Shown here piece by piece: positions 27,601 to 57,641 of a stretch of DNA of 57,641 bases. Each line of letters starts with the position of its first letter. The stretch's first letter is position 1. The translations under genes were made by a program, and so were the position numbers. The stretch covers positions 11,673,079 through 11,730,719 of the forward strand of contig CM082585.2 in the NCBI GenBank assembly GCA_040954595.2, read 5' to 3'. This stretch comes from Balanoglossus misakiensis. Its lineage: Eukaryota; Animalia; Hemichordata. Below the pieces are notes generated by a model, which made no database searches, was not told where the DNA came from, and saw only the letters and a list, made by a program, of their open reading frames with translations.

Positions 27601-30600
27601 TCTTACCATGCTTCCAAGTCTATCCCATTCCCGGATGAGATGGTTGAAATCCAGATAGATCAACGGATTCCAGAACCTGGGAAAGTATCCTTCGTAGGGA
27701 ATTCCCCTACCCTGGATGAAACAGAAGGGAAAAGGAAAATGCTGTAAAAAGAACCCACCATTCAAGGAAAAAACTCCCCATAAATTATCTTGCCACTTTA
27801 GCTGTTCTTTAGACCCTCAAAATTTTTATACAAATAATGATTTGTAAGAACACTCACATTTTCAACCCAAACTGATTTTTCATCTTCCTTCAAGATGTAA
27901 TTCTTCACACCAACTTCAGCTGCGACTCGGAAGAGCCTGTTCTGAGTAACACCACCGTAAGATCCACCCAAGTCACACCATCCAAAATCATCACCCTGTA
28001 AGAGAATGCTATAGGTCATAAATGCATACATAACATTTGACAATTGCATCTGCATGTTTGAAGCACTATCATCTCTAACTTTTGGTAATTCTTTTCAATA
28101 TGTTTGTTTTGCACGCAAACTGCGGAACTGTTTTCAAATCCTAAAACACAATAAAATGTTTGGTGGTATGCTTATCAACACAGCCGATGGCCAGTCTGCA
28201 ACCCTACCACATGGCAGAGCAACTTCTGATGAGAAACAAATTAAACCCCCCTCCTCCCAATTTCACAATGACAGTACCTCAATAGTCAGAGTCCGACCGC
28301 CAACCCTGTCCCTCGCCTCCAAAAGAAGGAAATCAATACCCTCCTTCTGTAGCAAATGGGCTGCACTCAAACCTAAAAAGTAAACAAAAGTTAGAATATC
28401 ACGAATGTACCATAGTTGATTTCAAGAACGCATATCCAGGCTGACATGTTGTCCACTTTATTCAACCAGAATTAAACATTTATGACTTTGAAAAAAGATG
28501 CATTGATGGACGAAAAATCTATTCTCTGCCGGTCAGAATGATTGAGCCTTTCAATGTCATATCAGACATTCAGAGGTGTCATTGTGAATCCATACAATAC
28601 ATAACTATAATTATTGAGTTTCCATGGAGATACTCAGCGCTGTACATCACATTACCTCTGTGTAGCAACAGTATGACAATATGGCTGATACTGTTTTGAA
28701 CACATCATTTAAAAAAATATGCAGTAAACATGATTTTAAATTTGCAGCAGCTGCTCAAAAACAATTTCCTCTGCATGACTCTGATATTGATCATGAGTTT
28801 TTCTGTAAATAATGATGATAGTACTTGAAAAGCAATTAAAAATGTCACTCAAATTCATACATTTGTATGGATGTAATTACTTTTTAGTAGAATGTATTAT
28901 GTGTCTATGCAAACCAGACATATTGCATTACCAAAATCAACATTAATTTTGTAATGACTCATGATGTCAAATTTTGCAACTTGGTGCTAAGTTGTTTTAG
29001 TCCATTTTATTAAATTAGAGCAAATGGTATTAATTGCATAAAACAATGATTGGTTGACCTGCAGGTAAAATTACACCTTTCCCTTCAAGCAATTTCAATC
29101 ACTTAGTGTGTAATTTAACTTCGGAGGTCATTTTATTTTATAGATAGAATTCTGATCAGGTGAAAACCCTTCATTATGCTGTAAGCCATGAAACTCTTGA
29201 GTCTACACTTTTTCCCATTGAACATCTGCACCCTGACATCAATATTCTCAGCTTGTCATTTTCAGGCACCCGGGAATCATCAATGCAAACACTGGGATTG
29301 CTTTTATTTCCATCTCAGGAGAATAATGACATGCTCACGCTGGACACTAAATTTTTCAATTACTATATCCTCCAAGTGAGAGTTAATTCTTAGATTCCAT
29401 ATTATGAAGACTTCTCCCATTCATGTTTCAAGCCAAGATTTCCTCTTAATACATGCATGTTTGAAGATGATTTAGATTTACTTCAGGATACTAAAAGTAG
29501 AGCCCAGGGAGTTATCTTTCTATGATTTATAATATTCTAGTTTTTGTGTGTGTATGTGTGTGTAATTTATGACCACTGCAAGTGGAACAACAGCCCAGAT
29601 TTATTATAGAGTAACAACCCTAGGAGAACTCTTTCCGCTCCGAAAATCACAGAGCTTTACAAAGATTTAGAAAGTCAATCCACAAAATGATGAATACTGA
29701 TGGAAAGGTACAAGTCACGTAGTAGGGAACTTGAATCAACATTTCACGGCCTACTATAGTTGTCCCTCTCTATTAAATTCGTCCCCAGGGACAAATCTTA
29801 GTTTGTAAAACATGACCATCAATAATAGCAGATCCATTCTAAGTGATTTGGCAGAAATATATTTTACGAATACCTTTCATGAAAAATTCATAATACAAAG
29901 TCCTTTCTGAAATGAAAGGAACCCACGTAATCATGCAAAGTGCAAATTATTAATGTAAAAAAATTGGAAGAATCAAACCACTTATTCACAGGAAGGAAGG
30001 CTATAGCTTAAATAATTGATCAACGTTTATATGCCAAACTGACTTATTGCATTCTACTGTTCTGGGGTATTGTCATTAATACTATGGTTTGTGATTATTT
30101 TCTGTTATTGCAAACTTCTCAATGAAGGTAAAGGATTTAATATGCATTCTGATATTATGATAAATGAACATTACTTTTTTGATCAAAAGCAAGCTCCAAT
30201 GGGGACTGTGAATTTATGGCCTCAGCTAGACGTATTCCCTGAATTTCATTGTGAACGAGATTTGTGTGTATTTTAGACCGCTGGGTATAGCAACGTTTTC
30301 CATAGCTACAGTGAAGCCGTAACATGAGGTTAATCTCCATGGAGTAACTTCAGACAGGCTACGTGCTTGAATGATCATGTCACATGACATACAACCAAAG
30401 GTCATCCAACAATTGAAATGCAAGACATAACTCTCTATTGGCTGGTCGACAAGGCAATTGCACAGGATAAAATACTTCAGATTAACAGAATCAATGCATA
30501 CAAAATGCCATCAGAATAATGGACTTTATGGATGCTTAATACAGTAAAAGTGGGTGAAAGAAATGAACAAAAATGCTCAAATGTTTGCGTTTTAATATTC

Positions 30601-37077: not shown

Positions 37078-40000
37078 ATGGCTGCGCCCTGTCCACTTGT
37101 CGCGGGTGAGTTGATATATTGAGTTGACCCGAAAAATGAGAAAGAGTGCATACTTTGACAGTTTGAAAATATGCGACACTAACACGGAGTGAAACAAACT
37201 AGAATTTTGCAAGAATGTTGTGTGAAAGTTCTTTTCTTTGAAGTATCTCGAGTTAGACTGCCACATGGCAATGTTTTCGTCGCACGTGCACGTGTGATAA
37301 TGTACACACCTTCCACGTTGTGTCCCCCTCATACATCTTACCATATTGCTGCAGTTTTGTAGCCCCGCGACTACCCTTGACGATTTTTGTCTAACTTCCC
37401 CATACCATGTGGTACGTCCATGCCCTCACATAAACAGCCGTAGATCCGCAGCAGATAAATGTAGCCCTGAATCCCGTACAGTGTTTTCCGAGAAGGGGGC
37501 GTTGCCCCCAAAAGACTGCCAGAGCACCAGGGTTACAATTATTGCACTTGCATATGTTTGGTTGTATTCTCTTTTTACAGTGCGGGCCTCTGCAGGCACA
37601 TCGTTATTTCAAGGACCACCAGCATTGAAACAGTTTGACAACTTTTCAAGGTGACTATTTATTTTCTCTTTCAGTGACCTTTGACCTTGTTAACCAACTA
37701 AAGCTAATCTTTATACATGTATAACTATGGCCAATTTCATCAGGTCTGTTGGGTTGGATGTGTGTGTATTGCAATTTTCATATAATAGTATATCATTTAG
37801 CAAATACTAGTAATATGTAACAATAAATTAAGTAATGTACATTATATGTCAAATGAATAGTGAATGATCTCTTTCTTCATCTCTTGCAACAGTGACACAA
37901 GCCCAAGATGTAGAGTAATAGCATTCAGTGCTGATGGCAGTCTCTTTGCATGGTGTAATGGACAAGTGTAAGTATTACTTTTCATAAGTTATCTCTTTAA
38001 CTAATGGCTGATCAGCTGTAGCTGATAACAGAAATTGTCAGTAGTTGATGGTGGACAAATTCAGATCTGCCTATGACTGTATTTTCATGCCAGGTTTTGA
38101 AATTTCAACCACGAATGTCTCAACCATCCATGTCCAATAATGTGCGATTTTTCCCCTTGCAGCATAAATATCACCAGTTTACCAACAGGTGACTTTGTGC
38201 AGAGAATTGACCGACCCAAAACTGTGTGTCTGCAGTTTTCACCCAGAAACAACATTTTGGCAACTTGGGAACCTTATGCTGGTGAGTTATAAATCATGAG
38301 TGTTGAATGTCATGTAGCATATTGATTAGGTTGGTACATGTAATATAATGAATGCAGTCTTCTGGGGACTTTGAATTTTAACCCAATTTTGTAGGATTTA
38401 GCAGGAAAAACCATAAACCTACTACCTCTGTTGAATTCAGTTACCAAGGATACACCAGCAGGAACTCCTAATTTGCATTTATGGGATGTGAAGACTGCGC
38501 AAGACCTCAAAGGGTTTGTACAGAAGAGACAAGATACATGGTTAGTGCATTGACTTGCTGGTAGAAATCTTGTCAGGTCCCCTTTTCTCTCTACAATCTT
38601 GTTTGGTGTTTTGAAAGATGTGATGACAGCTAAACCTGATCAATATATTTTGGACATCTTCATACATGCAACAGAAATAATAAAACAAAATTCCCGACCT
38701 ACCTTCTCTATTTTTCTTTCAGGTGCCCTCAGTGGTCATCGGATGAGAGTATCTGTGCCAGAAATGTGAACAATGAAATCCATTTCTTTGAAGGCAATAA
38801 CTTCGGTGGGTACCTCTCTGTTAAAATCTGTTTGGGAAAAAAATTGATGCAGAACATGCATGGCAATGCTTGTTGGTCCAGAAGTCTGGTTGAGAATGTG
38901 TGATGACTCTCACATCATTTGCAGCGCTTCCTACCCACTGATTTTGATTTGATTTGATTTTTCACCCACACTAGACACCATAGTCAGAAAGCTTCACATC
39001 CAAAAGATTGCAGACTTCCGACTCTCTCCAGGTGACATGCCTTGCAAAGTAGCAACATATGTGCCAGGATCAAAGGTAAGATTGCAGCAGCATTATTAAA
39101 AAGTTTATCTGTAAAATATTATTATGATATGAAATACAAATGTGTTTATGAATAATTCAGCAGAATACAAATTTTCTATTTTCCAGGGTGCACCATCATT
39201 TGTACGTGTTTACAAATATCCAAATTTGGAAGGTCCTGGATCGATGATTGCAAACAAGAGTTTCTTCAAGGCTGACAGGGTCAACATATTGTGGAATAAG
39301 AAAGGTAAGCTATCAACTGAAAATCTACATGTACACTCCAGGATATTCAATGGGGATATTATAAGCCCAAAAGAGAATACATATCACTCCTATAGTTGTT
39401 TCTGTTGAAATATTGTGTTATATTTTACATCTTGACCATTCCTCACAGGGACTGATTTGTTGGTGATTACAACAGTAGACGTTGACCAAACAGGTGCATC
39501 ATATTACGGTGAACAAGCTCTTCATTACATCAGTGCAAATGGAGAAACAAGTAATGTACCTCTGGGTGAGTAGCCTGACCGCGCTCTGTGAACTCTGACC
39601 TATGACACCTAGAATGACTCCTGTTACGTTGCTTGGTAGCCCATGACCTTCAACTATCAATGCAGGTGGGCAAGTTTGATTTGATGTTCCCGTAAAAACT
39701 ATCAATGCACCTTTGCTAAGTTTAAGTCTCTATCATGTAACATTGGCATTTGTTTTTCCCTTTCCAGCCAAGAAAGGTCCTATATATAGTGTAGATTGGA
39801 ATGTGAATTCCACTGAATTCTGTGTTGTGTATGGATGTATCCTTTGTTGTTTTCATGTCTAGTTTTAGACAATGTTTTGAATTCTTTCTCGAAACATTTG
39901 TGCCAGACCTTGGTTGGGTTCTGACTTCGTATTCTATGTCTATATCTAATTGCCAAAGATATGTATTCTAGTCATGGCTACGTTGTAGTTACATCATGTG

Positions 40001-42324
40001 TGTTTGAGATCACAAAATAAGGCCATGACTTCCAAATATGGATAACAAGAGCGATACTCCTTAACTGAGTGACAGTTATGCCTGCCAAGGCAACATTGTT
40101 CAACTTGAAATGTGAGCCTGTGTTTGACTTTGGTACTGGACCCAGGAATATTGTACACTACAATCCACAAGGAACCAATATCCTTTTGATATACGTTTAG
40201 TGTCACTGTTCAATTTTCTATACATATAGTTCAGATAGATGATACAGACAGACACTGTAGCATGCACACATTCACACGTGCGTGCACCTACACAAACACA
40301 CACGTACACACATACACATGTGCCACAAGCTCACCGACATGAGAATCACTAAATGAACTTTAACAAAATTTTCCCTAACTGTTGTCACTTATTTGCTTGG
40401 CTGGATTTGGTAACCTGAGAGGAAACATGGTAAGTTAATTATGCAAGGAAAAGGTGTGCAGAGTTTAACAAAAATTGTAACGTTTCTCCCACTGGACCGT
40501 GTACTGTTTGTCTTGCCTCACATGAAAATGTCCTCCATGTAAATTTCCTAGCCACGCATGACCTTGCAGAGTCTTGTGGAGTTCTGACAATAACGCATCT
40601 TAAAATGTTTAATTTCAGGAATTCTGGGATCGCAAGAATCTGAAGAATATCAGCAAGATGACCGCCAGTGATTCGACTCACTTTGAATGGTCTCCAGATG
40701 GCGCTCACTTCTTGACTTCTACATGTTCACCCAGGTTGAGAGTAGGAAATGGGTGAGAGAGGGGGTACTTTATGGGATAAGCTGGGCTTTGTGGGGGCAG
40801 ATAGGTTCATAACCTGGGTATGTCATTTAAATGACTTTGTCTCATTGGAGCATGTGTCTTTATAAAACACTGTCTGGGAGTAATGAATATACAGTGGCTG
40901 ATTTCATGGTTTGATTAGTTCGATGTCTTCAAAGCAGTGAGGTGGATGTCAATCAATTATTAGAGAATACAATTTTGTGTACTTAGGTTCAAAGTCTGGC
41001 ACTATACAGGAAGTTTACTGTACGAGACAGAAGTAGGGGAATTGTGGGAAGCCACCTGGCAGAGTTTCCTAGAGGGAGTGCTCCCAGAGAAACCAATAGT
41101 GTACCAAGCTGTTCCATCATCCGTCAGCCCCTCCAAACCAGAAGCAAAACCTAATGCATACAGACCCCCAGCCCTGCGAGGACAGCCCCACAAAGCCATT
41201 AGCGTGGTAAGTACAGAAATCTAGTAGAATCAAAAATTGTGAATTGTTACATTACCAGTTATGTTGAGTTGTCCAAATTTAACGTAAAGAATATAGTGCA
41301 CTTTGCAATAGTGTAGGTACAAAACTGACAGGTCAAATCCTCGTCTGTTTTTCCAGCACGCTCGGGAGGAGGAATTGCCACAGAATATGAAACCCAAAGG
41401 AGACAGTGGTAAGAAATGCTACATTTTCTCCAGAAGTGTGAATTGCGCCCTCTATGCCAACAGAGTGAATGAATGGGGGATGGAAAAAAGACAGATCCAG
41501 TCTTGTTTGAAAGTGGTTGACTATTCAAACTGCTTTGTCAGTTATGTTATGCCCCTTTTCTTCTTTTTTACAGAACATTTATCAAAGTCTGCTCTGAGGA
41601 ATAAAAAGAAAAGAGAATCGAAAGCAAAAGGCAAACACGAGGTGAGGATTTGTTAAGATTAGTTTAGAGTGTGATGAAGGGGAAAGAACATTGGTCATCT
41701 TAACAGACAGAATAGATGTCTGTGATATCTAATAGTATTTTTGTTTTCAAATTTGAAGGATGAGTTATCCCAGGAAAAACGAGATGCCATCGCCATGGCA
41801 GCCTACGTCATGGCTCCATCTCAACCAGCACCACATGTCCAGAATACTTTTGACCCAGACAGCAGTGGTGCCGATCCTGAGACAGAGAAAAAAATCAAAG
41901 GACTGAGAAAGGTAGACCTATATTGTTAGTTTTTTGCAGATGTAGTCTAAAGGGAATAGAGACTCTTAAAATATTAACAACCCCATGTTGGATGAAAACC
42001 AACCAAAAATCTGTACTTGGAATGGATTTTGGTGCCATTTTCCAAACATATCAAATTTTCAACATTGAACACAATATAGATACCCAAGAGAGCAGATTTT
42101 TTTCAAACTGAATATTGCAAACTCTGAGCTCTGTGAAATTGGAATAGAAGTGTTGCTAGGAGATAGGTCTTTAATTTGCTTTTAAATTTGTTTTCTAGAA
42201 ATTGAAGCAGATCGAGAAGCTAAAAGAACAGGCAGCATCAGGAAAGCAACTTGAGAAAAACCAGTTGGAGAAACTTGCAACGGAAGACGCCATACTGCAA
42301 GAACTGGAAGAACTCAAACTTTAG
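37078..42324 (+). CDS. EIF2A: Eukaryotic translation initiation factor 2A (WD/beta-propeller)
   Basis: MAAPCPLVAVRAS..., KSFFKADRVNILWNKKG, SYYGEQALHYI, KKGPIYSVDWN, FCVVYGFMPAKATLFN, LAGFGNLRG, EWSPDG, SPRLRVGNG, AYRPPALRG, KLKQIEKLKEQ...LEKNQLEKL; TAG at 42322-42324. Confidence 0.96.
39837..40075 (+). other. U12-type (minor spliceosome) GT-AG intron in EIF2A
   Basis: Donor GTATCCTTT; branch site TCCTTAAC at 40058-40065, 10 nt from the AG; no polypyrimidine tract. Splicing restores VYG-F-MPAK. Confidence 0.92.
40178..40388 (+). other. U12-type AT-AC intron in EIF2A
   Basis: Donor ATATCCTTT; branch TTCCCTAAC at 40371-40379; acceptor AC at 40387-40388. Splicing restores NPQGT-I-ICLAGFGNL. 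Confidence 0.92.
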
Positions 42325-43529: not shown

Positions 43530-46500
43530 TCAAATCGTATTACTGATTACAGTATTGCGAATGTCTTGGAGGCTGAAAGCTGTGTTGAAGACAAAGTTTT
43601 CTGGGTCTTTCTGTTCCATCAGCATAATCCCTTTGCCACTGACTGCTAAGTAGAGACCTACAGAGGAAAACAAAACAGAATCTGTCTAGGTTACAATATT
43701 CTTGCATAGTAAAGAGTTATCTTGGATCAGATTGCAAACAAATGTTTTTAGATGATGAGAGAAAAGTAGTAAATGTATTCATGATTGCTTACCTCTAAAA
43801 TATGCTGACTCAAAGACATATCTATCTGTACCCTTAGCCCACAGTCTGCGATAAAACACTCTGCCATCAACATGTTTCAACTTCTCCAGGCTGACAAAGC
43901 CCACCTTCTGAAAAATAGAAAGCATTGGATATATTTTAAAATCCCCACTCATTTTTGGTGTGAAAGTAACCTTAGCTATTTATATACAAGAAAGCCATGA
44001 CAACACTTAGTTTTCAAGTTTGAGAATTATTTTACCTTGAATGTCAGACTGCGATTACGTCCTGTTGAAACGGCCAGGCACTTGTTGAATTGTTGGTTGA
44101 AGAGTACGACCGCAAGATCTGGATCGTCTGGGTTGACTTCATTTTGTATGTCGTATGGCCACAGAACTTTGTACTGGTACATTGTCCATTGTCCTGCAAT
44201 TATTCACAGAAGGAATAGACTAATTTAGAGATAAAAAGTTCAATACTTACAATCATCTTGCATCAATCAAGATACCTTGCTGAAAACTGTTTTCATTCTC
44301 TGCCATGTATGAACAAAAATCTGTTTTCTCTCACCTTCTTTGAAATCATTATTTGCCGCCACTACTTGCAATCGATTCCTGTCAGGCATGGCAACAAAAG
44401 AACTGGAATCATTGGAAGGATATATATATGTGTTGTATCTGTCATAGTAATGCACCATGGGGAATCCATCATCAGATTTATCTATGTATTCCCTCTCCAA
44501 GACAATTGTCTCAAAAACAATTTTGCCATCTGGAAATCAAACAAAATAGAATCAGATTAGCAATTGAGTGTTGCACTCAACATACAGCCAATATGTCACA
44601 GTTTCAGGGAGGAAACATGTCCTTGTGAACAAAACGAGACTGACCATCAAACTAGCATACTTGGTTTTATCTCTAACTTTTTAAAAAGAAACTTCATTGG
44701 CCAATACACCGACACACAATAATTGAAGGTGGTGTAAAAACTCACTGTCAATCAGAATGTCTATCTTGATTTCAATAAATGTGTACACTTCAGTTGGTCC
44801 GTCATCTTCATCATCATCATCGTCGTCGTCATCATCAGGCTCAAGTTCTATCTTTCTCTTCAAGATCTGCAAACACAAAAATATTTCCATGCTATTGAGA
44901 ATTGTTCCAACTCTTTAATCACATGGCAGATGTTAGTAAATGTTCATTCAATTACACACTGTCACTGCATGAAATAATTCTGAAAATGTACATGCATGCA
45001 ATTTGACCACCAACTTTTACCAAACTTTATTCCTATTTTTATCCAGGACTGGTGACTTTGGTTAGATTAGTATTTGCTAATGACTGTTTGTGGAGGACGT
45101 GACAATTTTGCATACTTACAAATATAATTTGTCCGTCCATTTGATGAAAACGGTCTAAGATATCCCTGTGTTCAGCTGCTGAGACATCAAGGCCATTAAC
45201 TGCATGCAGAACATCACCAACTCTGTGAGATTGAAAATATATCATGTTACAAGAGGACATTAAAGTTTGATCCAACTCGGGGAGAAAAGATTATTTTGCA
45301 GTGTTCTGCTGTGTTTGTGACAGCAGTCTTTAGTCACCTTTCAATGTTATCCAATACACAAGACCACATCAAAACTGTGTATGCGACTACAATGTTCCGA
45401 CTAAAATACTATATGGCAGCTACATTAATACCTCAATTTGGTTTTCTTTACAAAATCATGTTGTTCTTCTACCGCCGTAATTTTGTGCTTCTTTCTATCT
45501 GGAGTTTTGTCGTCGACATCTGTGCTGAATTTTACTCCCAGTGAGTGAAGATGATCATCCGTGCAAGGTATTTTGATGTCAGATTCCTCATGGATTATTG
45601 GTGCTTCCTGTGCAGCAGTCAATACATAAAAACAATTAGTCAAGATCTGCTTTGTTTCATCATTAAAAAACAACATGCACTAAATGCCTGTACTCTAACA
45701 CTAACCAGGCATTGTCTAAAATATTATTCTGGCTTTCATTAACGTTTTTGTTTTATTAAAACAATCAAAGCAATCTTATCTTTTAGCTATTTGGTATAAA
45801 ATATACTCCATTTCTGTGTTTGTAAACAAACAAACAAACAAACAAACAAACAAACCATGAGAGAACATCCCATGGCCATATCCCTGTGATGGAGCTACAC
45901 TATCTCCATCATGGGTTTTACCGATTGCATAATTTAAAGGCTATAAATAACCGAGGAATTTCCCTTACATTGCAGAGATGACAGCTCGAACTTCCGTATT
46001 TAAATACATGTACGGCCAAGATTGCCCAGCGAATTTAGTGAAGTATGTACAATTTCACCATCGATGGCTGAAATATGGTTCGTGAATAACCCCAATCGTG
46101 CCACGGCGCAAGGGTCAAACCGGCGAAGAAAACGGTGAGTGATTTATAGACCGCGGAACCACCACTTGTAATGAATTATCTGAGTGGAAAAACGATCGAA
46201 GGGGTTGGGGAAAATTTGCCAATAGGATGACATGAAATTGACAACTTACCATACTATCCTGTGCTCGTATACAAGGTGTTATCACCTCGATCACTTTGTG
46301 TTCAAAGTCTTCCAGGCGGGAATGAATTGTGCTTGTCAAGGAGCCAATGAAGGATTCACTTTCCACAGGACGCGATTTTTGAAGCCCGCTGACTCTCTCT
46401 TCTCCGCACAGCTTTCCATCAACGCTGTCGTCAAATTCACCATCGAGGCCCAGACCTCGCATGGCGGTTGTGAACGACTTCTGTTTTTTAAATGCGCGAG

Positions 46501-46546
46501 GATCAGGCGATCGCGATCGAGATCGAGTAGTTTTTTGTCCAATCAT
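43530..46546 (-). CDS. Leaderless 430-aa protein with a PDZ-like domain, an acidic linker and an IL-1/IL-18-like beta-trefoil cytokine domain
   Basis: Eight phase-compatible GT-AG exons (46546-46250, 45607-45432, 45222-45120, 44866-44746, 44529-44335, 44193-44036, 43907-43793, 43657-43530; 1293 nt). PDZ: SLGVKF...ITAV...LRVGDVLHAVNGLDVSAAEHRDIL. C-terminal domain: QWTMYQYK...LAVVLFNQQFNKCLAV...SLTFK...RVFYRR...YVFESAYFRGLYLAV...NTAFSL. Confidence 0.8.
45955..45964 (-). promoter_or_regulatory. NF-kB consensus site in intron 1 of the IL-1-like gene
   Basis: GGGAAATTCC on the minus strand matches GGGRNWYYCC. Confidence 0.45.
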
Positions 46547-46634: not shown

Positions 46635-46681
46635 ATTTATAGACATGGAAATCCGTGACGTGTACAGACGGGGAATTCCCC
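46635..46681 (-). promoter_or_regulatory. Candidate inducible promoter of the IL-1-like gene: TATA box, CRE-like site and palindromic NF-kB site
   Basis: Minus-strand TATAAAT at 46641-46635, TGACGT at 46656-46661, and GGGGAATTCCCC at 46670-46681, 124 bp upstream of the ATG. Confidence 0.7.
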
Positions 46682-48017: not shown

Positions 48018-51000
48018 CTAAATTGCGATATCAGGAACATGTTCATGATGGACCTGAGCTTTAATGTTTTCTCTTTTCGTTTCATCGTCGTCCACACTTA
48101 CAGCGACAAAGTCTGTTTCTAGTGCTGAATCTGCACTCACTGCAGTTCCACTTCTGGTAGTTACACCCCCGTTGTCCAGTCCCGGCCCGTCCACCAGGTC
48201 AGAGGTCGGTGAACCGCAATACCCACTCTCACCCGATGAGCTTATCTGCCAATCGATCAGATTCTGTCGCTCCAACTCTTCCGACTGGAGCGTCTTCGAC
48301 TGATCAGATATAGCCTTCAGGGCGTGGGATCTCCCTGACGGACTTCTTGGTAACTGCAGCAACAATGTCTTCCAGAATTTGGCGGTTTTCTTCAAATTGT
48401 CCGGTTGCCATTTCAGACAATTTGTGACCCTGATGATGTGTTTCAGGGCTTTCATGTGATCAATATCTGCATTGGCTGGAAGTTCTTTGGCAATGATGAT
48501 TACCAGGTTGCTGTGGAGTTTGAGAGAATGTTCTAATGCCACGTTGAATTGAAACGAACTCCAATGCTCCTTCAGGTAGTCGGGGGTCAGCACAATGATC
48601 CAACTTTGGCTGGCTTCAATCGACTCAACAACACTATCTGCAATAGCTATCATACAAATACAAATGAAAAGTTAGTAAAACGTGTGATTTTTTGGAAATT
48701 TTTACTTTCAAATCTATAAATTTCTGATGTAGTTTTGCAACAATGCATGTACAGGATACAGTCATTTGATTAACTTTTGATACACTGATTATAGAATATT
48801 TTAGGTTTAATCAGAAAGCAATTATGACTTACCAGTTCCAGCCAAGAAATCTCTTTGCTCGACACAAAGTTTGAATCCGCACTTTCCCTCAAGGTAGCGC
48901 ATAATGACATATTTGACAAAGCGAAAATCTTGATCTGTTCCACTGTGTGAGATGAACACATCATACTTCTTGTCATCTGTGGAAACAGAACACACATGTG
49001 GATGAAACTGTATGACACATGGCAGTTGCAATGTGCTACAAACAGGTATTGTCTTCCTAAAAAGTTTATACTACATTCCTGATTATTAAAGATACAAAGT
49101 CTCACTTTTAGTACGGTAAAGAAATTTAAAATTTCAAAAAAATTATCAAAAATTTATCAATATTAAAGTTACATGTTTATCATCATGGCCGATCTCAGTG
49201 ACGCAAATTCAAATTTTGGCCTTGAGTGAGAAACTTCCAGGTTTTCCTGTTAACTTCCATATTTATTTTGTGTGCAAACAATTATCCGGTACTCATATTC
49301 AGCAGATACCGGAAAATTCCAGTTAATGACGGACAAAATTTGGGTCAGGGACTGCTGTACTGTGACCTATATTCCTGCCCAGTTGAATGCTCTGCAATTC
49401 TCTGGTTTGCTTCATACATCCTTCATTGCACATGGGGTCTTTGGTAAACTGGGTTTATATTAGAATATTTCTCTGGAAGTGTATATAAACCAAAGTTCAA
49501 AGACTGACGATCATATTTCTCATGCGTGTTTATCATTGGAGCACGTATTCAGGACTATGACCCAGTTATCTTTGGCACTGATGAATGGGTGAATGCACTG
49601 GCTCTATAGACATTAAAAGCCATGAATACTATTTCCAAGAAATTTTATTCTGGGGGGGATATGGTGAGCAGGAGTGGGGTGCTTTGAGCAGAAGAAAAGA
49701 AACAAGTTTGACAATTCGTGGCGATAATGTTACATTCTTTGGAACGTGGATCCGGACATGTTTTTCACGGAATAGAACAGAAATATATTTCTTTGAATAC
49801 AGTAATCATCCTATCAGTTCCGCTGTACAGGTTATAAGGTCAAACACAGAATGATGTCTGAGTATCTTATGTCTGGACTGGTCTTTTGAAATTCTTAAAA
49901 TTTTCTCAGCATATCTCAAATATCCATTGTTGAAGTATTACCCAGCATCTAGGTTTTTTTGAAATGCGATAACTGGGTTAAAAGGTTTATGAGGCTTTGA
50001 TATGATTTAAAGGCTGACACCAGTGAACCCACTTGTAATTGTTTGACAAGGCTACGTGACTTGAATCCTATGACCTATATATGGTACTGGTTAAAACCAA
50101 TTTTGGTTGTCACTGTTTTGTAAATATTTTCACACCTGTTGAATATTAGGCTTGTGCTTTCGCAGTGGTATTACCACATGGTTCAGTACAAGGAAAAACA
50201 TCAACAGCTTTGATGAGAGAACAAACATTAACTAATGGAATGTTTATCAAACTGCCCTCTTGATGACATCACAAAACTGGTTTTGGTCACTGGACCGCTC
50301 GCGTAAACATGTTAACAACCGACAACAAGGCGGTGACTGCCCTATTGTGAGTTGTGACCCCACGAAAGGTGTGGCAAAAGTCCAAGGAGGGGTCATGACC
50401 TCCAGGAGGCAGCTATAAAAAAAAATAGTACCATATACGGTAGTAAGTTGCTGATCAATTTCCGTAGGAAATTACCATCACCTATTCAACAAAGACTGAA
50501 CAGGCCAGCAATTAACTTACATAATGTTGAGTAATCGAAGAACTGCGGACCGGACCGGAACTACAAGTAGGAATGTGCTCTTTAGAAAATATAACACAGC
50601 AGTGTAACTGAATAATACACTCATGATTTCTACATATCGTGTTTTATGGGAAGAGCTGATCTGTAATTAGACTCTGGTTATGAAATGTGATATTGTATAT
50701 TGCACATTTCTCCGTCTCAAGAAGGCAACTCAGTCTTTTTGAGTTCAATCAGAGTTCAGAACCTGATGGGCCTGCAAATATACCAGATATCACTAGAAAT
50801 ACTCAGAGACCAGGTGTATGTAGACCATTGTGGTGGCAGTTTTGCATGTCCTCAAGATATTCTCTTTGAATTTAATTTTGTAGGTATGTGTATAACATGT
50901 AATTAACAGACTGGTGGAAAACAGTTTAAAATTCATGTTTGTCCCTTCTTTTATTATATATATATTTGCTTAAATAAATATTAACATATTTGGAAGAGTA

Positions 51001-53646
51001 ACGCAAAATGGACATGACTCCAAGATCATTTACAAATACATAAATCTGCATGCATGAAATATTGATAAATCTGTGAAATATATTATAAAGAATGTTGAAT
51101 ATTTCTGTATGGTATAAATATCTCTAACACTGTAAAAAACTCCTCTGTATCCAAGTCTGTATCTGTATATTGTAGAATTCTTCAGGTCTTTCATAAACCC
51201 TTGAGGCTCTTGGTGAAACACTACCAAGACTATCATAAAAGCAGACTGCTGATTGGTTATTGCTCATCTTCTGTGGTCACTCCAACCAATTGGAACCATT
51301 CTTCTGATACACTGTGAGATGTCGCCAGGTCATAACACCGCTTCTTACATTTTTGCACTGGCAGTCAGAAAGAGGCTGTTTATGTGTTCAACATCCCAAC
51401 CATTACCTCTAACCCCCCCCCCCCCCTAGATGAAACCCTGCAACTCTCATTGTCAATGAAAGATCAACAGTTCTAAGAAAAATTCTTAATCTTTTCTTAA
51501 GTAAATATTTCTTGTAAAAATGTCTATGAATTTAAAATTCACACATTTAACATTATCTCACTAGTTTCCCCTTTACTATGTAAAATTGCTACATAGCAGC
51601 TTATCACTGTTACTAATATAGTACAACAAAGAATCTTATGTATTCAAAAGACGATAAATGGTAACAAATGCATGACACAGCATATTCTACCAGGGTCTAG
51701 TATGTATGTTGCCTTTCATGTGGAGAGCGCCTTCTAGTGGTAAATCTGGCAGTTCATGTTTTACTTGAACATTTCTTTGTCACCTTCAGCCAAAGATTTA
51801 AGAAAAATACTACTGTATCTTCGATTGTTTTTGAAACCTTTTTTATACAACATGTTTGTCAAATGTGTTATATGTGCTTCTGTTGTCTTCCGTTTTGAGG
51901 TTTGTGCGATCCTTTTCTGGCAGAGAGGGCGCTTTCTCGAGTGAGGGAGGACACTTACCATTTTTTTCCACTTTGCCAAAATTGTACTTGTAGATGAGTT
52001 TTATATCAAGTTTGAATGTCATGCCAAGGGCGGACAGAATGAGTGCCATGATGACAATCGATGAAAGGACTATAATTATGATCAATAGGGTTGTGCTTTC
52101 TGCAGTTGAAGGTCCTGGATTTGGATCTGAAAGAAAATGGAGAACATTCTAAATTGAAAAGTATTGTATTTGATATGTACAACGAAAGTTATTATTTATA
52201 ACTAGCCTACTTTAAAGGCCAATATTTGTTGATGTTAGCATTTCTATAGATTTTAACAAATGATCACTTTTTCACTTTTTAAATCAGGGATACAGTTGCA
52301 TGCTGTTACCCTCACAGCCAGTCAATATGCATATACTATATCCCCCTGGAGTTGCTTTGTTATCTGCCTCTGCAAATGTACAATAAACAGACTTACCCCC
52401 ATAACTCAGTACCAAAGGAATATCTATGCTTCCATGGGCGTTGACTGCTTTCACTACATATGTGGCATAAGTAGACGCTCTTATGTCTTGTATGTAAAGA
52501 TATATGCCGATGGTTTCATTGTCATCTCTGAAATCAATACACAAATAATTTTGTTGTTGTTGTTGTTGTTGACTAGTTTTGTTTGGTTATCAATTGCAGT
52601 CCTATCCTACCATTGAATACAACAGGGTGGAACTATATTTTCATGGAAAGGGTCTTGCTATTTGCCTCTCACCTTCCCCTCTGTCTGGTACTGTATGTTC
52701 TGTTATCTAAGTCTTCTATGAAGTAATGACTTGTCTGGTTGTGCTTGTACCAAAAAATCATCTTGTCTTCGTCTCCACCATGTCCAAAGAAGAACTCGCA
52801 GTAGAACGTCACATTAGAGCCATGGAGTCTGGTGTAGTTACGGCAACGTGTCGAGTTCAGCTGGTGGGGTTTCTCTGTAAACTGCATTGCTGTGTGTGTA
52901 TGGGAAAAGTTTGAAAAACAATTTGCTTTGTTAATTTTTAACTGAGAGTAGTGATGATCTGACGGAATTGAACACATCTGTACTTTGGATTGAATGTACA
53001 CCAATATACTGCAATTTATTCTCAACAGAGCCATACAGACATGACCATGTACTTGAAAAATTCAAAGAAAATCTTACGTTTGGCCTGTAGTTCTTTGGTG
53101 TGGCTGATTGTACTTGTTCCATTGGAAGCACTACATGTATAGCTTGCCTCATCCCTCGTCATCAAATACCGGAATACTAAGGTCTGGTTTCCATTATCCA
53201 TGAAAGTCTCTGCTTGATCGACCCCTTTCCATGGATAAGGATCAGAGCCTTTATACCAAGTCATCATCAAATACCCTTCGGCACAGCACGACATGTCTTT
53301 GTATTGGGTAATGGTTCCAAACTCAAGATCACCCATGTCTGGGTTTGTGAACTTGAAAGTGTCATCTATATTGAAAAGAAACAGCAATCAAATACCAAAA
53401 GATCAACTAAAAGTACATGATAATGATACCCCTAACTATTGACTTGTCATAAAACTGAAAGTTGTTTTATAAAAGCGAAAGTTGCGTATTTAATTACATC
53501 TTGGTTGTCAAGTTGTGAGACCCACCTTCATCGTGCCCATTAAACTGATCACAGACGTTTTTCCCATGAGCATGGAATACCAAAATCGAAGACAATATTA
53601 TTATGACTATTCTGGACTGCAGTGGACACCTTGTCAGTTGTTCCAT
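48018..53646 (-). CDS. IL-1 receptor-like protein: signal peptide, 2 Ig domains, transmembrane helix, TIR domain and long C-terminal tail
   Basis: Exons 53646-53526, 53365-53078, 52889-52673, 52527-52397, 52126-51959, 48976-48833 and 48646-48018. Ig1 C...TWYK...DEASYTC; Ig2 VTFYC...FWYK...ATYVVKAVN; TM LLIIIIVLSSIVIMALILSALG; TIR YDVFISHS...FKLCVEQRDFLAG...SIEAS..WIIVLTPDYL...FWKTLLLQLP. Confidence 0.92.
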
Positions 53647-53731: not shown

Positions 53732-53741
53732 GGGAAACCCC
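53732..53741. promoter_or_regulatory. NF-kB-like site just upstream of the ATG-bearing exon of the IL-1R-like gene
   Basis: GGGAAACCCC on the plus strand, GGGGTTTCCC on the minus strand. Confidence 0.45.
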
Positions 53742-54593: not shown

Positions 54594-57500
54594 ATGGCGG
54601 TGAGTAATGACTACAGGTTGTGGTGTACATTTGTACGACAACCGAACTTCAGAAGAGATTGGAGATATTACCGTGGTGTGAAGGTGGAAACGGGGAAATG
54701 GGATGGTGGGTTTGATGGGAGTAACTACTGTAGATGTTATAATTAAGTCCTAACACCCACAGATTCCCTGGTGATTGTGTATTGCAAGGTACATGTAGCC
54801 TGGATAGGCGTTTACAATACATGCCATCACTAACCCTGGAACAGCTGAATGTGATGCCAGGTCATGCAGTGATGGATGTATTGTATTTGATGTGTTGGCA
54901 CAGCCATGGAGTACATTAAGCTACTAGTAGTACCTCAAATGGTCTAGCCTAGAATCTATAACATTGCTTATTTTGGGTCACAAGTGGATTCTATGTGTAT
55001 GGAGTGACCTAGCTTCAGCTCAGTAGCTCGAGGTTAAACCAATAGGCAAAAACCTCGAGGTAATGAAGTGCAGCTAGGTGTGACCTAGCAAATGTGCAAA
55101 TTAAAATCAACTGTAGAGATAGGCTCCAACCTTCCGCTGCTAGATGTAATTGATGCTTGCAGGTTTGTTCTTCTGCTGTCACCTCTCTGCAAAAGAACAA
55201 GAGCAGAAAGAGGCAAACACCCAGCAAATGTAAAGGTGGCACCTATCTCTACAACTGGTTTTTATGCATTCTAAAAATTAACTGCAAATTTTGAAACCAG
55301 GTGACATTTGTTATTCCGAACTGCGTGACTAAGCCCCTTTTGATAATGGTATATTAGAAAACTGTATGCTCCTTTAGCAAGTGTGGTTTTTGCATGTATT
55401 ATTTTCAGTTTGCATGCAACATGTGGCCGGGATATTAGTGTTTACCATATTTATCCTATTGTGGATGGTTTTGTAAATTTACAGAGCTGTACAACAACTC
55501 TCTCATTATTAAGAAATCAGATGTTTCAACTTCTGGAGAAAAAACCTACATAATAAGAATTAAATAATTCTAACATTGACTGTTGTGAACAAAAAGTTGG
55601 GAGTTTTTTAATGCAGGGTATTTTTATGGCATAGACTATGAATAGAAAAAGTACAGTAAATCTGTTTGGAACAACATCATAACATGTGTTACATACTGAT
55701 CTGTTTATTTATGGGTCAGTGATTTATAAAATCAGCGTATTATTAAAAGGAACGACACAGGTCCAGGTCATGGATTCCCTGATTTCTATCTCTTCTATTG
55801 GTTGGAAATCTGGTCAACATTGGAAAATGGGATAAACATAAGGACCAAAATGGCCAATTGATTCATTTTCTTAACCTTTGACCTTTACAGTCAGATACAT
55901 GGGGAGACTGGGATGAGAAGTTTCTATCGGAGGAAAAACACCAATTTGGAAAGATGAATGAAGAGAACAAAGAGGCAGCGTCACCGGGCGGAGAAGGGGC
56001 AACGAAAACCACCCCACAAAAATCAGGAAAGGTAAGGATGGAGATTTACAACGCATTTGCAAAGGTTTTCAACAGAATTTTTATACTACTCCATTTATGG
56101 CTGCTCAGTGTAATAAGTGTTGGTTTATTGCTGACCTCTGCAATATTATTTGTTTCTTGTCCAGCTGGATTCCTTGTCAAGGGAAGATTTGATCAAGTAT
56201 ATCAAAAAACAACAGATACTGGTCCAGAAAATCAGAGCAAAATGTGATGGTAGGTGCATAGCAATGAAATCATCAAAAATTAAAGTGGAATGTGATTTCT
56301 TCATTTTACATCAGCAAGTTTTGCTTCTTCGTTACCCTTTATTTCAGCAAATACATTCAATTTTTTTTTACAGACTTAGCCAAAAAGAACACAGAACTGG
56401 AAAAGGATAAGAATGATAGCTCGAGTGCCGAGGGCCAAGGCAAAATTCAGGTGAGTTTGACAATGAAATGTATGATAAAGATTAACTGTTAGTGCATGTA
56501 TGTGTTGTGTTAGTCTAGAGATTATCTGGTGATTTTCCCTGCAAATAGGAATGTCTATAGACTGCTATGAGAACCTCTAAGCAACTATTTCTGCATTGCA
56601 GGAGTTAGAGTCTGAACTTGCAGACTTGAAAGCTGAACACAAAGAATTGATGGCCGCTTATAGTGGTGTCCAACTACAACAGGAAAATTCAGTGCAAATC
56701 CATGAGGTAAGAGAATGTTACATGCAGGCACATATACCTTACATAAAGTATTGACAGAATAGGTGGCGGTTTTGAACAAATTAGACAGACATTGTCAAGT
56801 TCAGATTTGCAATGGATATTTCCCTAAGAAATCTAATAAAGACTAATATTGATCTCCTTTGTAAAATAAAAAAATGATTCTAGGATCTACAAAGTAAGGT
56901 CAGTGAATGGACAGAAAAGTTTACAAAAAGTGAAGAAGAAAAGAAAAAAATCCAGGAACAGTATAATGCTGAGGTGAAAAAGAATCAGGTGAGTTAGTCT
57001 GTGCTGGAATGAAAGAATGATACTGATTGGCTACTTGACACCAACTGCTTGTTTAAATATCCAATTGTCTGCTGTTTTTTAAACTGGGTGATTTGAAGAC
57101 TCTGTTGGTACCCAGCATGCATGTGAGAATCCCCTCTTCCCAACAAATAGGGTTGCAGCAAAAATAGTTCAATCTTTATGCTGTTGATAAAGTTGGGTTT
57201 GTGGGTAACCTTGGTGTGTGTTGGTATTAAGGTGGTTCCTTCCATGTTCCCTTGGTTATTAGAACATGGCAGAGCAGTTTGAGTGCATGAAGATGAAAGA
57301 GGAAACCATGGCAACCACATTCCAGTGTCTGCAAGAGGAGTGTCAGAAGCTGACTCAGGAGAAAAAAGTAATGCCTTTATTTACAACATACCGGTATTAT
57401 CAAAAGAAAAAATTCAGAAACAAATGCATGTGTAAATCAATGTTTATGCATGTTGAGACAGAATTGTGTCTGATTGACCCTTGACCTTTGAACTTGTGGA

Positions 57501-57641
57501 TCATTGCAGGACTTGAGTGATCAGGTCAGTGTTTTGACCGTGGCCAGAGATGAAACCATGAAGGCTATGAAAGCGCTGAAGCAAGAGCAGCAGGGTAGCG
57601 ACAGTGCCAGCGCTCAGCTGCAGGTCCAGATAGAAGCTCTG
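54594..57641 (+). CDS. GCC2: GRIP and coiled-coil golgin GCC2/GCC185, 3'-partial
   Basis: TPQKSGK|LDSLSREDLIKYIKKQQILVQKIRAKCD matches the GCC2 N-terminal motif and is followed by coiled-coil exons. A tentative first coding micro-exon ACC-ATG-GCG|GTGAGT (54594-54599) splices in frame to 55891; otherwise the start is 55954. Confidence 0.82.

Follow-up and report, generated by a model that had tools for sequence, protein, structure and literature searches.

The closest described relatives

The gene described here has its closest relatives in the IL-1anc genes of ambulacrarians (PMC13736523; Fontenla-Iglesias et al. 2025/2026). According to the peer-review file of that study, the genes of 28 ambulacrarian species, more than 80 in all, share a remarkably conserved structure, in which exons 2 and 3 encode a PDZ domain and exons 5 to 7 together with the start of exon 8 encode a trefoil. 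In the sections of the paper available, linkage of IL-1anc genes with EIF2A is described for all ambulacrarians and with GCC2 for hemichordates and crinoids, and IL-1R-like genes are linked as well. Its section 7 and the legend of Extended Data Fig. 7 state that the phasing of two trefoil introns is conserved in IL-1anc, which is used there to support a shared origin; hence, the intron argument for homology is already in print. Among the vertebrates, teleost nIL-1F (IL-1Fm) combines a PDZ with an IL-1 domain, as does the gene reported here, and the published description of lumpfish nIL-1F gives seven coding exons and six introns, one fewer than in our gene. The published structure of the vertebrate IL-1beta gene shows seven exons, and the phases of its coding introns are II, 0, I, I, 0.

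We analysed a stretch of 57,641 nt of Balanoglossus misakiensis DNA (contig CM082585.2), referred to as the window, which contains one more gene of this kind.

Gene model and splice junctions

The gene lies on the minus strand and comprises eight exons and seven introns, with a product of 430 amino acids that joins a PDZ domain to a predicted beta-trefoil. Exon 1 (46250..46546) contributes 297 nt of coding sequence from the ATG and is followed by a phase-0 intron. The first half of the PDZ domain is encoded by exon 2 (45432..45607, 176 nt; intron 2 in phase 2) and the second half by exon 3 (45120..45222, 103 nt; intron 3 in phase 0), while exon 4 (44746..44866, 121 nt; intron 4 in phase 1) holds the end of the PDZ domain and an Asp-rich linker. 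Exon 5 (44335..44529, 195 nt) leads from the linker into the first trefoil strands, exon 6 (44036..44193, 158 nt, phase 1-to-0) is the central trefoil exon and ends at SLTFK (Lys350), exon 7 (43793..43907, 115 nt) carries an FES motif (Phe382), and exon 8 (43530..43657, 128 nt through the stop codon) adds the last trefoil strands. The seven introns have the phases 0, 2, 0, 1, 1, 0, 1, are 128 to 642 nt long, and all obey the GT-AG rule.

Three of them fall within the trefoil. Intron 5 (141 nt, phase 1, donor after 44335) splits Gly298, two residues before Trp300 of the WTMYQY strand, intron 6 (128 nt, phase 0, donor after 44036) directly follows SLTFK, and intron 7 (135 nt, phase 1, donor after 43793) splits the codon of Gly389 in FESAYFR-G-LYLA. 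The first-pass annotation had proposed exactly these three introns with phases 1, 0 and 1, and all of its coordinates proved correct on the minus strand. Its 158-nt phase 1-to-0 exon (44193-44036) was confirmed as well, as the best in-frame choice against three homologs.

The junctions are predicted from sequence and homology. For each of them, all in-frame GT/AG pairs at a distance of up to 40 nt were considered and their products scored against three hemichordate homologs; among 1 to 13 candidates per intron, the modelled junction obtained the top score in seven of seven cases. For intron 6, a NAGNAG acceptor came second (43904 versus 43907, minus strand); its use would drop one Lys and leave phase 0 unchanged. 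At the boundary of exon 1 and intron 1, two isoforms of a Glandiceps talaboti homolog (P0002 and P0007) part ways within one codon of the modelled point.

Affiliation to the IL-1anc family

We consider it nearly certain that the gene is a member of the IL-1anc family. Members of this family are characterized by an N-terminal PDZ domain, a C-terminal IL-1-type beta-trefoil of 12 strands, an (F/L)ES motif in strand 9 and the lack of a signal peptide. We base the assignment on the PDZ domain and FES motif of the gene, on its close homology to PflaIL-1 of Ptychodera flava and on synteny, and not on the intron pair alone; the initial proposal of true homology to the IL-1 superfamily was borne out. 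PflaIL-1 (XP_070538561.1), as described in PMC13736523, likewise has a PDZ domain, a predicted trefoil and the FES motif and is without evident signal peptide, and it resembles our gene in its eight exons, with exons 2 and 3 for the PDZ domain and 5 to 8 for the trefoil, as well as in being linked to EIF2A, to an IL-1R-like gene and, probably, to GCC2. Our model is in close agreement, judged by eye, with the PflaIL-1 sequence in Table S2 of that study. A search for WTMYQY gave no match across the seven supplementary files of PMC13736523, therefore the B. misakiensis gene is absent from Table S2, but could belong to the more than 80 genes that are mentioned only in the peer-review file.

The searches for homologs returned hemichordate-type proteins only, three among 867 and three among 3895 candidates. 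Altogether four hemichordate-type sequences show 40-47% identity to the model over about 340-410 aligned residues. The products of Glandiceps talaboti LOC144442221 and LOC144442320 (P0002, P0007 and P0005) have the same layout at 40-47% identity and are named only 'uncharacterized protein'. These two IL-1anc-like genes of G. talaboti have near-adjacent locus numbers, and one of them has an alternative first exon. Exon 6 as HMMER query gave four matches, one of which, P0002 (340 aa, a G. talaboti uncharacterized protein by its NCBI name), is 65% identical across the whole exon, whereas the other three (P0001, P0003, P0004) matched in short repeated stretches, so that P0002 alone was used. With exon 5, the word-based search gave no match among four candidates and the ESM Atlas search only leads below 0.9. 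A metagenome scan retained one locus among 595 pattern matches; its reading frame is uninterrupted and therefore yields no intron positions.

Evidence for the PDZ domain comes mainly from P0002, in which PDB entry 2qt5 is matched with E 2.5e-5 and all 18 PDB matches contain PDZ domains, while the Pfam match to PDZ_6 (E 4.9e-4) is below the cut-off; exons 2 and 3 of the window gene align with that region. The window PDZ exons taken singly are without Pfam match, and a profile of the whole protein matched 33 PDB sequences, all of them containing PDZ domains. In the ESM Atlas, P0002 is closest to an echinoderm PDZ cluster (0.96), followed by chordate Interleukin-1 clusters (0.95), the latter family set appearing in 15 of 30 hits. 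The IL-1 pro-peptide (PF02394) was not found in P0002, where a Pfam scan at E up to 10 gave three families, all PDZ, and no FGF (core domain PF00167) was present among the Pfam or PDB sequence matches. The N-terminus is basic, and by inspection no hydrophobic signal stretch was seen in the translation.

The FES motif at position 382 aligns with the FES of IL-18 in a profile alignment. However, a bacterial RsgI5 domain (PDB 9fnk) contains repeated FES-x-x-Y-x-G-Y motifs and scores slightly above IL-18, therefore the motif is not unique to IL-1. The assignment reproduces, by an independent route, the 2025-2026 result that IL-1 cytokines are older than the vertebrates, and provides another IL-1anc gene of hemichordate type beside a candidate receptor.

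Sequence and structure of the predicted trefoil

In PDB, 19 sequences were matched by the trefoil profile (E up to 10), 18 of them being IL-18 or IL-36Ra and none FGF. The top match is the bacterial RsgI5 domain (E 0.24), the matches to the IL-1 family are all non-significant (E 0.32-0.69), and IL-18 is the best vertebrate match (E 0.32). Pfam IL1 reached E 0.02 at best, in two of the seven alignment members, and exon 7 alone gave no match in PDB. Within these non-significant matches, the register places SLTFK on IISFK and FESALYRG on FESSSYEG of IL-18, and a second query gave the same register. The distance from the Lys of SLTFK to the Phe of FES is 32 codons in the window gene against 31 from the Lys of IISFK in IL-18, which is, unlike the window gene, without PDZ domain. 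The profile alignment stops short of the phase-1 intron, the register of which we therefore infer.

Structure prediction was of low confidence. Two AlphaFold2 models on shallow alignments had a mean pLDDT of 38.3 and 43.2, and Foldseek with the second of them gave no match at E 0.001 or better (TM about 0.2); in the non-significant ranking from this low-confidence model, IL-1 family chains occupy ranks 1-10 and FGFs appear from rank 21. A trefoil model for PflaIL-1 is listed in a figure legend of PMC13736523.

A conserved hairpin of predicted beta structure precedes the trefoil in the linker and spans intron 4 (44746-44794 and 44475-44529, minus strand). It resembles, as we assume, the hairpin of the IL-18 pro-region; a search from that point gave only a C-terminal IL-18 match.

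The central intron pair in IL-1, IL-18 and FGF

The two central trefoil introns of conserved phase that characterize IL-1anc are present in the window gene with phases 1 and 0, as in human IL1B. PDZ introns of conserved phase are a further trait of the family; those of the window gene have phases 2 and 0. The first-pass annotation had given a phase 1-to-0 exon for IL1B, which was accurate, as the published HGVS coordinates of the variants c.467-334G>A and c.597+76G>A delimit an exon of 131 nt. From these coordinates, a phase-1 intron in codon 156 and a phase-0 intron after codon 199 can be computed, which correspond to the mature residues 40 and 83 counted from the Asp116 cut site. Both exons are phase 1-to-0, but differ in length (131 versus 158 nt). 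Mature residue 40 of IL1B lies two before Phe42, just as the split Gly298 lies two before Trp300. From the usual trefoil strand patterns, we infer that Phe42 and Trp300 are equivalent. In IL18, an exon boundary presumably follows directly after IISFK in phase 0; no published coordinates of it were found in the literature searched. It is highly probable that the two central introns are truly homologous with those of IL1B.

A similar exon exists in human FGF10, the only FGF gene checked. Its exon 2 (c.326-429, 104 nt) is phase 1-to-0, starts inside Ser109, as given by the acceptor sequence and by the location of c.327C>G (p.Ser109Arg) in exon 2, and ends after Ser143; the split codon lies two before Leu111. 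We presume that this exon spans the same four trefoil strands as the IL-1beta exon. FGF10 is a beta-trefoil and, like the window gene, has a central phase 1-to-0 exon, but this exon has only 104 nt, the gene consists of three exons, and a PDZ domain is lacking. Given the phase 1-to-0 exon of FGF10, the intron pair does not separate IL-1 from FGF. It likely points to descent from a trefoil gene of IL-1/FGF type and marks shared ancestry, but does not single out IL-1. Hence, the earlier claim that gene structure supports homology stands as far as the phase match with IL1B is real, but has to be narrowed because FGF10 has the same pair.

These data bear on the view that the intron match is specific to IL-1 and proves membership by itself, which we regard as unlikely. 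The FGF10 exon is the argument against it, bearing in mind that it concerns one FGF gene and that its strands are presumed to be equivalent to those of IL-1beta. The phases and approximate positions do agree with IL1B, the phase-0 site aligns with IISFK of IL-18, and PMC13736523 draws on the intron phasing to argue for a common origin. In the main text of that study, FGF is treated only as another trefoil family and in an alignment comparison, the term FGF has no occurrence in its supplements, and no prior statement of the coincidence between FGF and IL-1 introns was found in the FGF and IL-1 literature searched, as far as its text was available. Central introns that are apparently common to FGF are a weaker marker of IL-1, yet they bear on a possible common ancestry of the trefoils of IL-1, IL-18/IL-33 and FGF. 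In the available text of Rivers-Auty 2018, IL-18 and IL-33 are equally distant from IL-1 and FGF, and separate origins are argued; introns shared to the exact codon, if true, would weigh against such separate origins.

The five-intron phase string and a possible origin of the IL-1beta pro-peptide

The agreement may extend beyond the trefoil. Introns 2-6 of the window gene have the phases 2, 0, 1, 1, 0, which is the whole phase string of vertebrate IL-1beta; for the first three introns, the correspondence is one of phase. Under assumed phase frequencies, the 1-then-0 pair alone would occur by chance with a probability of about 0.14, the three additional matches, which were noticed after the fact, with about 0.03, and the complete string with about 0.005.

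These estimates bear on the possibility that the introns coincide by chance or parallel gain and that the protein, a trefoil fused to PDZ, arose separately (FGF-, fascin- or AbfB-like) and is no IL-1-type cytokine. The chance value for the pair, the unequal exon lengths (158 versus 131 nt), the bacterial domain that scored above IL-18 and the argument of Rivers-Auty 2018, in the text available, that independent trefoil origins are possible can be cited in its favour. However, the Atlas neighbours are Interleukin-1 clusters, 18 of the 19 weak PDB matches belong to the IL-1 family, an IL-1R-like gene adjoins, and a chance match to the complete IL-1beta string has the low value given above, so that we rate a separate origin as very improbable. 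The preferred reading is that of an eight-exon IL-1anc gene with PDZ domain and predicted trefoil, the central phase 1-to-0 exon of which likely goes back to a common ancestor with the vertebrate IL-1 genes, and probably with FGF too.

The phase-2 and phase-0 introns lie in the PDZ domain of the window gene and in the pro-peptide of IL-1beta. Vertebrate IL-1beta has a pro-peptide where the window gene has its PDZ domain, and the two show no significant sequence match. From the phase match of five introns, a testable origin of this pro-peptide can be proposed, namely that its exons descend from PDZ exons which eroded in place. Against such a link, Pfam shows no similarity to the IL-1 pro-peptide, and the exon lengths differ. 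The upstream introns of IL18 are not known to have the 2, 0 phases. In the parts of PMC13736523 available, amniote IL-1s are stated to have undergone loss of the PDZ domain, and the two uses of 'pro-peptide' there do not concern this origin. Only tentatively, we propose that the vertebrate IL-1alpha/beta gene is in its entirety an IL-1anc gene with the PDZ domain eroded in place, that the pro-peptide is the relic of the PDZ region, its phase-2, -0 and -1 introns being those of the PDZ domain and linker, and that the central 1-to-0 exon is of even greater age, with codon equivalence between IL-1, IL-18 and FGF. If true, there would be one ancestral gene for all animal trefoil cytokines, which would counter an independent origin of IL-18.

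The intron after the FES strand

Intron 7, which interrupts the protein after FESAYFR, had initially been taken as lineage-specific. IL-1beta indeed is without it, since its last intron is the phase-0 one, but the intron is probably clade-wide and not a peculiarity of this species. The ambulacrarian exon layout, as summarized in the peer-review file of PMC13736523, matches the window gene exon for exon, therefore the additional intron is probably at least Ambulacraria-wide; a gain in ambulacrarians and a loss in vertebrates both fit.

Neighbouring genes and a candidate receptor

The window gene sits in the published ambulacrarian IL-1anc locus, between EIF2A and an IL-1R-like gene. EIF2A is represented by exons of part of the gene on the plus strand (39133..41221; Pfam eIF2A E 0.015 and 0.042, below the cut-off) as the downstream neighbour. 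Directly upstream and in the same orientation (48018..53365, minus strand), six exons join into one open frame of 520 codons for an IL-1R-like protein of the order Ig-Ig-TM-TIR, with Pfam matches to I-set (E 3.8e-5) and TIR (E 6.2e-8 and 1.7e-4) and a long acidic tail; its 5' signal-peptide exon was not located in the window. Further on, a coiled-coil gene starts on the plus strand (55882..57641) without Pfam match, which we take to resemble GCC2.

kB-type sites and a possible route of activation

Upstream of the start codon, a perfect NF-kB-type palindrome, GGGGAATTCCCC (46670..46681, minus strand), ends 29 nt before a TATAAA at 46641. Together with a CRE-like ACGTCA and a kB half-site, these elements form a promoter-like cluster (46641-46681, minus strand) within about 45 nt. 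A second kB-type site, GGGAAATTCC, is situated in intron 1 (45955..45964, minus strand). In the window, the kB pattern has 14 matches at seven loci against 2.87 expected, a number reached in none of 100 shuffles, palindromes being counted several times; two of the loci are within 600 nt of the start codon. From its sequence, the palindrome with the TATA element is a candidate inducible promoter. A kB-type palindrome also occurs upstream of the IL-1R-like gene (53732-53741). AU-rich elements were considered too and rejected, as six ATTTA motifs stand against 3.2 expected (p 0.09).

With regard to the protein, the Asp-rich linker between PDZ domain and trefoil is kept in all four homologs and is a candidate caspase region, and the full-length homologs retain a KKQKS motif. 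An NLS is predicted at the corresponding place of PflaIL-1 in PMC13736523. The same source, in the parts available, reports that sea urchin relatives are induced and caspase-cleaved, with one sea urchin paralog cut by a native caspase, that caspase-1 cleaved only one of eight IL-1anc proteins tested, and that ligand-receptor binding is still undemonstrated for IL-1anc.

By analogy with sea urchin SpurIL-1.3, one can imagine that infection would switch the gene on via NF-kB and that the pro-protein, having no leader, would remain cytoplasmic or nuclear until a caspase cuts the Asp-rich linker and thereby removes the PDZ part. The trefoil might then exit by an unconventional route, e.g. through gasdermin pores, and could signal via the adjoining IL-1R-like receptor. 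We regard the probability of such a cleavage, release and receptor route for the window protein as evenly balanced. In view of the single case of cleavage among eight IL-1anc proteins tested and of the lack of proof for binding (PMC13736523), a role as uncleaved alarmin or in the nucleus has to be taken seriously as a rival. The protein would then be a true IL-1anc that acts without cleavage, either as a PDZ scaffold inside the cell or in the nucleus, or as a cell-death alarmin comparable to IL-1alpha or IL-33. The basic N-terminus, the KKQKS motif retained in full-length homologs, the NLS predicted at the matching place of PflaIL-1 and the resistance of most tested IL-1anc proteins to cleavage (PMC13736523) are consistent with such a role, but the retention of the Asp-rich linker in all four homologs and the cleavage of one sea urchin paralog by native caspase speak against it, and we find it somewhat doubtful. 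For the route by cleavage and release, the adjoining ligand and receptor genes, each with an upstream kB-type site, are a ready pair for the missing binding test in an invertebrate.

In the remaining part of the window (1-37000), other genes encode an AAA ATPase, RNase H2 subunit B, an L7Ae-family protein, an aldo-keto reductase, a flavin amine oxidase and a RING protein, and one further gene has a Pfam match only to the INTS6 beta-barrel. The AAA ATPase is presumably PEX1-like, the gene with the INTS6 barrel DEPDC5-like and the RING protein RNF168-like. Another near-perfect kB palindrome (27697-27707) is found near minus-strand exons of the amine-oxidase-like gene.
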